Positions 22,754-24,904 of a stretch of 52,609 nt of DNA are shown piece after piece. The stretch is from Candidatus Melainabacteria bacterium. Lineage in GTDB: Bacteria > Cyanobacteriota > Vampirovibrionia > LMEP-6097. A model generated the notes under the pieces. That model did no database searches. It was not told where the DNA came from and worked only from the letters and a program-made list of their open reading frames with translations. A program made the translations under genes and the position numbers. Within the stretch, counting starts at the first letter, position 1. Each line of letters begins with the position of its first letter. The stretch lies in NCBI GenBank assembly GCA_018695135.1, contig JABHOV010000052.1, forward strand, positions 1-52,609. The letters are read 5' to 3'.

Positions 22754-24904
22754 ACCTTCCAATACCTGCATATTCTCAAGCGTACTAATATCACCAGTAA
22801 CTTCTTTACCTTGAGCAATCTCTTTAAGTAATCTACGCATGATTTTACCTGAACGAGTTTTAGGAAGTGCTGAACAAATAACTATTCGTTCTGGTCTTGC
22901 TATTGCACCGATCTCTTTGACGACTTGATTTTTAAGTTCTTCTTCCAGATCGTCATTGCGAGTCGCCGAAGGCGGCGTGGCAATCTTGACATTAGAAGCT
23001 CTGGATTGCTTCGTTTCACTCGCAATGACGACAAAAGCAACAATAGCTTCACCCTTAATCTCATGAGGTATCGAAACTACAGCAGCTTCACTTACTAGCT
23101 CATGAGCAACAAGTGCTGACTCAATTTCGGCAGTTCCAAGACGATGACCAGATACATTGATCACATCATCTACTCTACCGCCAATTTTGATATAACCGTC
23201 CGCGTCTTTAGTTGCAGCATCACCAGCGAGATAAACGTCATTGCGAGGAGCGTCAGCGACGTGGCAATCCAGGCTAGATTGCTTTGCTTCGCTCGCAATG
23301 ACGTGACTCCAGTAAGTATCTATATACCTTTGATCATCACCCCAAATAGTCCTTGCCATAGAAGGAATAGGACTTTTCAAATATAGAAGTCCTTCATTGC
23401 TGACATCAGCATCCACACCAGGCAAAGGCAAGCCTGCCACACCTGGTTTCATCTCATGAACTCCAGGTAGAGTTGTAATTGCAATGCCACCAGTCTCTGT
23501 CTGCCACCAAGTATCCACTATAGGGGAATATTGTTCGACGACTCGCCCTGGACAACGCGAGCCACCTATATTCTTATAAAACCACTCCCAAGCAGCAGGG
23601 TTAATTGGTTCTCCGACAGAGCCAAGTAAACGAAGTGAACTTAGGTCGTGCTTCTCGACATGCTCCAAACCCCATTGCATAAACGCCCTCACCGCAGTCG
23701 GTGCCGTATAAAAAATACTAATCTTGTATTTCTCTATCATTGACCAAAAACGAGATTTATCTGGGTAGTCTGGAGCGCCTTCGTAGATGAAGACGGAGGC
23801 GCCGTTAGAAAGCGGCCCATATGCTACATAGCTATGTCCCGTCACCCACCCCACGTCCGCTGTGCACCAGTATAAATCCCCAACTGCTGCGTTACGCTCA
23901 TGATTTACAGTCATCATTGGCGGCTCAGCCAACTCAGCCTGTAAATCATTCGCAAGCCTTGCATTTGGAGAATTTCTACTGGCGCACAGAGTATCCACAG
24001 TTGAATCACAGTCTTGAGTTTTCAAATCGAATACCCAGTTACTGGTTAAATGCGTCCAAAGAATATATCCCGCCGTCGTATGCACTATCCCCTTAGGCTT
24101 GCCTGTAGAGCCGCTTGTATACAAAACAAAGCTCATGTCTTCAGCCTCCAATTGTTCTGGCTCACAATTCGCTTCAAAACTACTTAGATCCCAAGTAACC
24201 AAATTCGCAATTGATTTCTGCAATTCCAAATCGTCATAGCTAGAATCAACTTGTTTAATCCGATCAAAACAAACTACTCTTGAAACAAAACTCAAGCCAT
24301 CGACAGCTTCTTTAACTGTCTCTAACAGCGGCACCACTTTGCCTCGACGAAACGATCCATCCGCAGTGATCACATACTTAGATTTAAGATCCTCAATTCT
24401 ATCGCGCAATGCTTGTGCAGAGAAACCTCCAAACACTACACTATGAACAGCACCAATTCTCAAACAAGCATGCATCGCAATTATTGCTTCTGGGCACATT
24501 GGCATATAGAGAGTGACTGTATCGCCCTTCTTAACACCAATACTCTTAAGCAAATTAGCTGCCTTGCAAACTTGATCATGCAGCTCTTGATAAGTCAGGG
24601 TCTTAGTATCACCAGGCTCACCTTCAAAAACAATTGCAGCTTTGTTGGCTTGAGTTTTTAGATGCCTGTCGATACAGTTGTATGAGATATTGATCTTGCC
24701 ATCTTCAAACCAAGTAAAGAAGGGCTCTTCTTTCTTCAACATTGCCACCGTCGGTTCTTTAAACCAATCCAAATTCTCTTTAGCTAAATCCAACCAAAAA
24801 GCATCAGGATCAGTTTTGAATTTAGACATCAAAGCCTGATAATCAGCATCCTTGATATTAGCTTGTGCTTTAAATTCTTCACTGGGGCTGTAGGATTGCT
24901 GCAT
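22733..24904 (-). CDS. acs: acetate--CoA ligase with four in-frame insertions
   Basis: [76 protein letters not shown] 24904 preferred. Confidence 0.97.
22951..23030. repeat. CGTC-type inverted dimer in frame in acs
   Basis: CGTCATTGCGAG...CTCGCAATGACG; encodes [26 protein letters not shown]. Confidence 0.93.
23236..23303. repeat. CGTC-type inverted dimer in frame in acs
   Basis: CGTCATTGCGAG...CTCGCAATGACG; encodes [22 protein letters not shown]. Confidence 0.93.
23522..23549. repeat. short imperfect hairpin giving a 9 aa insertion in acs
   Basis: RCP[GRVVEQYSP]IVDTWW versus usual RCPIVDTWW; AGGG...CCCT stem. Confidence 0.55.
23860..23989. mobile_element. MITE/RPE-like palindrome in frame in acs
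   Basis: CTGTGCACCAGTATAAATCCCCAACTGC vs GCATTTGGAGAATTTCTACTGGCGCACAG; inner ATGATTTACAG/CTGTAAATCAT; 21-bp core shared with 13154-13174. Confidence 0.85.

Follow-up and report, generated by a model that had tools for sequence, protein, structure and literature searches.

A mobile hairpin in acs of a Candidatus Melainabacteria genome has host codons as one arm of its stem, and its other arm may be copied from them

In the acetyl-CoA synthetase gene (acs) of a Candidatus Melainabacteria genome, a palindromic repeat of a dispersed family has one half of its terminal stem made of host codons. Comparison with empty acs alleles and with other family copies identifies the left, gene-proximal outer arm as host sequence, the codons of the conserved Y-W-C-T motif, and assigns the right, distal outer arm neither a host nor a family origin. 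An earlier note on this DNA had pointed out that the arm inside the insert is the reverse complement of the native YWCT codons at 12 of 13 positions, and both the coordinates and the match are confirmed here. We propose that template switching, with the immovable host codons as template, rewrote the distal arm as their reverse complement, a reading whose truth and falsity we weigh about equally. The window, meaning the whole stretch of 52,609 nt that was analysed, is contig JABHOV010000052.1 of assembly GCA_018695135.1, and its genome is called G000 below.

The acs locus and its hairpin

Orthologs of acs were sought in 41 genomes and found in 33, with the loop in question readable at 28 loci. 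An insert-free W(V/I)(F/L)Dxxxx(D/E)xYWCTAD is present in 24 of the 28 readable orthologs, that of the congener G002 among them, and relative to such empty alleles G000 and G001 share the same 135-nt net insert (Table 1). The filled alleles compared, those of G000, G001 and L098, are all identical. Because the YWCT site is uninterrupted in 24 of 28 orthologs, the left arm pre-existed and the right arm did not; the YWCT codons predate every one of the insertion events in the loop.

Table 1. Features of the acs hairpin copy and of other loci in G000. Positions given without a contig name are those of the window.
Feature	Position	Strand	Content or acs reading	Basis
acs (acetyl-CoA synthetase)	22733..24937	minus	734 aa ORF; holds the hairpin insert and further in-frame inserts	
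Three in-frame inserts of another repeat type	about 22908-23000, 23208-23290, 23508-23560		translated ...IASEAKQS...RND...	
Left (gene-proximal) outer arm CTGTGCACCAGTA	23860..23872	minus (acs coding)	host codons Y-W-C-T and first base of Ala	
Left inner arm TAAATCCCCAACT, family type	23873..23885		G-D-L	alignment of 30 copies
Conserved core	23886..23963		boxes CTGCTGCGTTACGC and GCAAGCCTTGCA, variable second stem, apical hairpin	BLAST family, inverted repeat I1
Variable second stem within core	23900-23912 / 23937-23949			
Apical hairpin within core			TTGGC GGCTCA GCCAA	
Right inner arm CATTTGGAGAATTT, family type	23964..23976			
Right (distal) outer arm TACTGGCGCACAG	23977..23989		L-C-A-S; inverted match to the YWCT codons, 12/13	
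21 extra inserted bases AGTATCCACAGTTGAATCACA	23990..24010		C-D-S-T-V-D-T; outside the palindrome	
Family copy site in hisC	C40:2499-2693			
Family copy site in mtnA	C84:18017-18212			
Family copy site in the C12 gene	C12:2647-2841			
Family copy on C31 (same site as L084 of G001)	C31:18847-19042			
Y1 transposase genes	C69:7186-7521, C123:10205-10543, C57:9224-9556, C46:28538-28843, C124:34686-35012, C124:3504-3842			

The loop has received such elements elsewhere. G012, which belongs to another genus, carries in the same loop (L033) an independent canonical family copy, in the opposite orientation and a few codons upstream, whose arms are the family consensus (AGAGCCTACCTGCAAAGTCCCA ... TGGGAGCTTTTCAGGCAGGCTCT). 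In acs of G019 (L034), a 21-nt stretch in this loop is the reverse complement of a consensus arm and is read, from its sequence, as a solo-arm footprint. Taken with the inserts of G000 and G001, the G012 copy and the G019 footprint mean that the loop has been struck at least three times and is a hot spot. Three further stretches of the window's acs gene, in-frame inserts of the other repeat type listed in Table 1, have no counterpart in G001 and jointly lengthen the protein by about 80 aa over the usual.

Between G000 and G001 there are 0 differences across the 205 nt of window positions 23859-24063, which comprise the palindrome, the 21 extra bases and 53 nt of acs. Beside this tract, which begins no more than 1-2 nt from the first base of the palindrome, 34 differences lie in the left 250 nt and 12 in the right 250 nt. 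The identity suggests either a recent exchange of the segment between G000 and G001 or strong constraint on it.

On the acs coding strand, the left outer arm reads TAC TGG TGC ACA G, the reverse complement of CTGTGCACCAGTA on the plus strand. The G-D-L encoded by the left inner arm stands in for the native D-(I/V) ahead of YWCT; the GATTTA variant of this arm also occurs in the C45 and C46 copies, and the inner arms show the bulge and the mismatch typical of the family, the latter at stem position 9. Outward of that position, the left arm is host sequence and the right arm an inverted copy of it. A repeat finder reports the inverted pair 23860-23877 / 23972-23989 (18 nt, 89% complementary), within which 12 of the outer 13 nt are complementary, leaving one mismatch that forms a G·U pair in the mRNA. 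For a fixed register and this genome's base composition, the chance of at least 12 of 13 matches is about 1e-6. The whole 130 nt form a single long hairpin (z = -4.5 as DNA and -8.1 as sense RNA), and 0 of 200 shuffles fold as well. Pairing extends to position 22, 2 bp beyond the usual end at position 20, as it does in the sister copy C98, which likewise has 22 pairs; in the outer 12 nt, 11 of 12 are paired, which exceeds the pairing in 36 of 42 copies (the mean for the family is 9.24). The acs and C98 cores are 93% identical and their arms only 33-36%.

For the 21 extra bases beyond the palindrome, no source was found in G000 at up to 4 mismatches, and k-mer matches were at chance level. They may be the solo-arm footprint of an earlier insertion; other 21-nt footprints lie in acs of G019 and in mtnA of G001. 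Right after the distal arm, at window positions 23985-24013, CACAG occurs three times at 11-nt spacing (CACAGAGTATC CACAGTTGAAT CACAGTC), which could be microhomology for switching back to the original template or a chance pattern.

Origin of the two outer arms

The two arms of the acs copy behave differently when set against five empty acs alleles: the left outer arm is matched at 9-12 of 12 positions, and the right at 6-7 of 12 only, which is background. Compared with about 50 other family arms, the right arm reaches 5-6 of 12 at best. TACTGGCGCACAG has a single occurrence in G000, where two one-mismatch matches lie on C47 and C52, contigs that are both without a BLAST family match. Recurrence of the same arm at unrelated loci, which the earlier note had named as the observation that would overturn its idea, was looked for in 30 genomes of the family; the arm was found only in acs of G000 and G001, in assemblies whose incompleteness keeps this from being proof of absence.

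A scan of metagenome contigs for acs alleles with any distal arm returned one contig, identical to the window, and in four sequencing runs the strain showed neither an empty nor a variant allele. In these runs contigs break at the repeat, and the loose ends at 23872 derive from acs of other organisms. Since the TACTGGCGCACAG arm was found in no other copy, templating from the host codons is the simplest account of the acs copy.

The repeat family

The family consists of about 50 copies per genome, each about 126-130 nt long and folding as one long hairpin, with 46 matches in G000 and 36 in G001. BLAST with the core query (23873-23977) gave 54 matches in G000, of which 31 span at least 70 nt of the core; one of the 31, at a contig edge, was set aside, and the aligned set comprises 30 near-full copies. 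Rfam returned no match for the family. A 20-nt core pattern matched 5 times, in unrelated taxa and about as often as chance predicts, in a genome contig collection that seemingly lacks the family's own genomes. Comparisons between species draw on two congeners and on assemblies of MAG grade.

Nine of the 30 aligned copies are flanked on either side by at least 30 codons of open frame, always with the same element strand as sense, and most in-frame copies translate to ...EKLPDARLA...ERNAADGTL.... Insertion is confirmed by empty orthologs for mutS, hisC, mtnA and the genes on C29 and C12. The family tolerates translation, often in frame within genes.

The stems are paired within a copy and diverse among copies. 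Counted from inner anchors set by the analyst, positions 15-20 of the arms form Watson-Crick pairs in 33-41 of 42 copies, a number that drops to 18 at position 21 and to 12 at position 22. Since the two outer 12-nt segments pair with each other in the same copy (mean 9.24/12) but not across copies (mean 4.01, sd 2.07), the stems are copy-specific. Across 435 copy pairs, core identity is uncorrelated with that of the arms (r = 0.15) or the outer arms (r = 0.06), a sign that the two parts evolve independently; mean identity between copies is about 0.44 for arms and about 0.77 for cores. Consensus arms of the AGAGCCTACCCG type nevertheless recur at unrelated loci and in genus g11. RNAalifold on 38 copies predicts 32 pairs, 23 of them with double changes. 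Stem mismatches in G000 comprise 82 A·C, equivalent to G·U on the sense strand, against 16 G·T, and the outer stems of 42 copies hold 62 sense-strand G·U pairs against 5 on the opposite strand, an excess of about 12-fold. This one-sided bias points to a structure that matters in one strand only, be it RNA or single-stranded DNA.

Copies that occupy one site in both G000 and G001, for which true orthology is not separable from repeated insertion at a hot spot, differ at 1-10 stem positions that are changed on both sides with pairing retained. At L079/C28, flanks and inner arms agree but each arm differs in its outermost 10 nt or so; L084 of G001 and the C31 copy of G000 are inverted in place relative to one another, arms included; and at L065/C65 the arms are similar and the inner variable stem is replaced. 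Three intergenic sites (L069/C41, L073/C8 and L076/C90) hold this family in G001 and a different one, of the CATTGCGAGCG... type, in G000.

Filled and empty sites

Copies of G001 were matched to G000 by their flanks, which yielded six clean pairs filled in G001 and empty in G000 (L061, L063, L066, L067, L068 and L088); L062 was left out because G000 has an internally deleted copy there. In all six the empty allele lacks both outer arms: its best matches to them are 6-9 of 12, and a null of shuffled arms gives a mean of 7.0-7.5 and a maximum of 10-11. The C20 copy is absent from G001 along with both of its arms, as judged by eye. At the mtnA copy C84a, G001 retains only a footprint, 21 nt longer than the empty G002 allele, and at the highly diverged C98 locus it has a 45-nt stretch that is possibly a footprint or a pre-existing arm.

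The net insert is shortest in hisC and mtnA (114 nt each), followed by the C12 gene (123 nt), mutS and the C29 gene (129 nt each) and acs (135 nt); the pairs filled in G001 have inserts of about 120-138 nt. The 129 nt added in mutS and the C29 gene are a complete palindrome. The hisC, mtnA and C12 inserts (114, 114 and 123 nt) fall below the 126-130 nt of the palindrome, so that 6-15 host bases are missing there or lie under an arm; at C12, the final 6 nt of the element are the host's GGCTCT. A mobile unit of 114 nt with one arm always laid over host sequence was considered and dropped, since net inserts run from 114 to 135 nt and to about 120-138 nt in the G001-filled pairs. No target-site duplication was evident at the junctions inspected, where net inserts span 114-138 nt and a divergence of 5-15% between the flanks of the two species limits resolution.

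The six empty alleles without arms, the recurring consensus arms and the 129-nt inserts together indicate that the arms are normally carried in by the element. The earlier note had supposed that the outer stem was templated from the target. For the acs copy this is supported, with one arm pre-existing in the empty alleles and the other unique; as the family's way of inserting it fails, neither arm pre-existing in the six other pairs of filled and empty sites. The note's further suggestion, that templating from the target explains why sibling copies share cores but not arms, is likewise not supported, the arms being normally brought in. The acs copy is the exception among those examined, read here as a one-off rewriting of the stem and not the usual mode of insertion.

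Origin of the acs stem

We propose the following course for the acs copy. An ordinary family member, of the kind that normally brings both halves of its stem, would have landed in acs, with its own gene-proximal outer half-stem missing and the immovable Y-W-C-T codons occupying its place. During DNA synthesis the nascent strand would fold back on, or switch to, the paired inner stem, and a single event would copy 13-14 bases of host codons into the distal arm, in a tolerant surface loop. This may have happened when an element without a proximal outer arm was installed, or later as repair of the stem, and one later transition would have left the G·U pair on the mRNA strand.

Such copying would yield the 12/13 match in one step, against a chance of about 1e-6, and the pairing of 11 of 12 outer positions is easier to reconcile with a templated copy than with slow compensation or with two serial imperfect homologies. 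It would also suit a stem that runs 2 bp past the usual end, in a family with pair-keeping multi-base changes and an in-place inversion, which are among the template-switch outcomes described in PMC8794818. Against it, the search for an intermediate allele came up empty: one metagenome contig agrees fully with G000 and G001 here, and the four sequencing runs contain no variant. Copying of arbitrary length does not predict a stem near the family norm (C98 also has 22 pairs), the mismatch at position 9 coincides with a position mismatched in many family copies, and both the 21 extra bases and the loss of the element's own proximal outer arm are left without account. The excess of sense-strand G·U (62 vs 5) points to single-strand selection, which could also lead to compensation step by step, and the 6-nt overlap of element end and host at C12 hints at homology between end and target during insertion.

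That last hint belongs to an explanation we consider unlikely, in which insertion was guided by homology. The donor would have carried both arms (CTGTGCGCCAGTA ... TACTGGCGCACAG), the left one resembling the YWCT codons by chance, and 16-18 nt of similarity would have steered recombination or template switching, placing the left junction inside the homology and leaving an illegitimate right junction with 21 nt of donor flank. It would account for the near-canonical stem length, the position-9 mismatch, two arm differences and the 21 extra bases, and it agrees with the coincidence of the 6-nt C12 element end and host GGCTCT and with the existence of orphan arms that are not host-derived (C20 and L088, for example); by the analyst's rough estimate, about 100 arms against 4 Mb would give several 16/18 matches per genome by chance. 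Yet no donor arm was found beyond acs in the 30 family genomes, nor a donor flank in G000, and the flanks are unlike the arms in the six other filled and empty pairs. Pairing would moreover be capped both by that of the donor's arms (mean 9.24/12) and by the homology of donor and host, whereas 11 of 12 are paired. Stepwise compensation, under which selection for the sense-strand hairpin fixed distal substitutions singly opposite a frozen host arm until the stem was paired, strikes us as distinctly unlikely. It draws on the preference for sense G·U over antisense wobble (82 vs 16 in G000, 62 vs 5 in the outer stem), on the double changes at 23 of 32 predicted pairs and on the lone acs outer-stem mismatch being itself a sense-strand G·U; but it requires about 10 specific substitutions within 13 nt, with one arm only free to change, and a result still above 36 of 42 copies, and the 0 differences between G000 and G001 over 205 nt make no ongoing change visible.

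The broadest alternative would have the outer stem of every copy made from its target at insertion, with arms never carried in. The uncorrelated identities of core and arm over 435 pairs (r = 0.15, and 0.06 for outer arms) are in keeping with it, as is the fact that neither a conserved terminal inverted repeat nor a clear target duplication was seen; the arms missing from the empty allele in six of six pairs, the recurrence of consensus arms and the 129-nt inserts that are whole palindromes make it very improbable. That an unrelated arm happens to complement the codons beside it has only the number of copies to speak for it and, at about 1e-6 for this register and about 1e-4 even over some 100 arm-flank junctions, is next to negligible.

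Relation to known systems and implications

Rickettsia palindromic elements (RPE) are described in PMC10969869 as about 100-150 bp long, present in many copies and often in frame in unrelated housekeeping genes, where they add a conserved peptide while the protein stays intact. The present family resembles them by behaviour, being dispersed, multicopy, palindromic and in frame in unrelated genes with a shared peptide; the host lineage is different. To our knowledge, no RPE stem half has been reported to consist of host codons. The family also shares with REPINs (mobilised by RAYT) and classic MITEs the character of short, non-coding, hairpin-forming dispersed repeats. Unlike those of either class, its outer ends are its least conserved part, and a consistent target duplication was not seen. 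The terminal inverted repeats common to all copies that define a classic MITE are lacking (9.24/12 within copies, 4.01/12 between them). Six genes of G000, each coding for about 300 aa, have a Y1 transposase domain (PF01797) of RAYT or IS200 type. In a REPIN/RAYT system copies of the repeat would flank the cognate transposase gene, but none of the family's copies comes within 2.5 kb of these six.

Quasipalindrome correction in E. coli is a process related to the copying proposed for acs. Template switching can create and maintain hairpins, repair stems and invert loops, according to Monttinen and Loytynoja 2022 (PMC8794818). As in the cases given there, the acs distal arm reverse-complements a nearby stretch already present in outgroups, of the kind that makes a perfect stem in one event, and the family has both multi-base pair-keeping changes and loop inversions. 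That work concerns RNA genes and microRNAs, whereas in acs a conserved protein-coding motif would be the template for a mobile repeat within the same gene.

In-frame palindromic repeats and hairpin-making template switching are both known, and the acs case combines them: half of a mobile element's stem is a conserved motif of the catalytic domain, and on the reading proposed the other half was written to match. Because the host half cannot change, the case shows the direction in which information flowed. We also entertain, tentatively and with more doubt than belief, that the terminal stem of the whole family is no fixed inverted repeat but a self-repairing structure, regenerated by reverse-complement copying and adopting whatever sequence lies opposite. 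If this is true, acs would be an experiment of nature, in which protein function holds one half fixed and so reveals the direction of copying; it would explain the wholesale change of stems between orthologous copies despite shared cores, and it would offer a natural system for studying template-switch mutation. Should the copying proposed for acs be correct, stem complementarity would be restored by copying and not solely inherited, which would bear on how hairpin repeats persist in genes and on the origin of multi-base compensatory changes.
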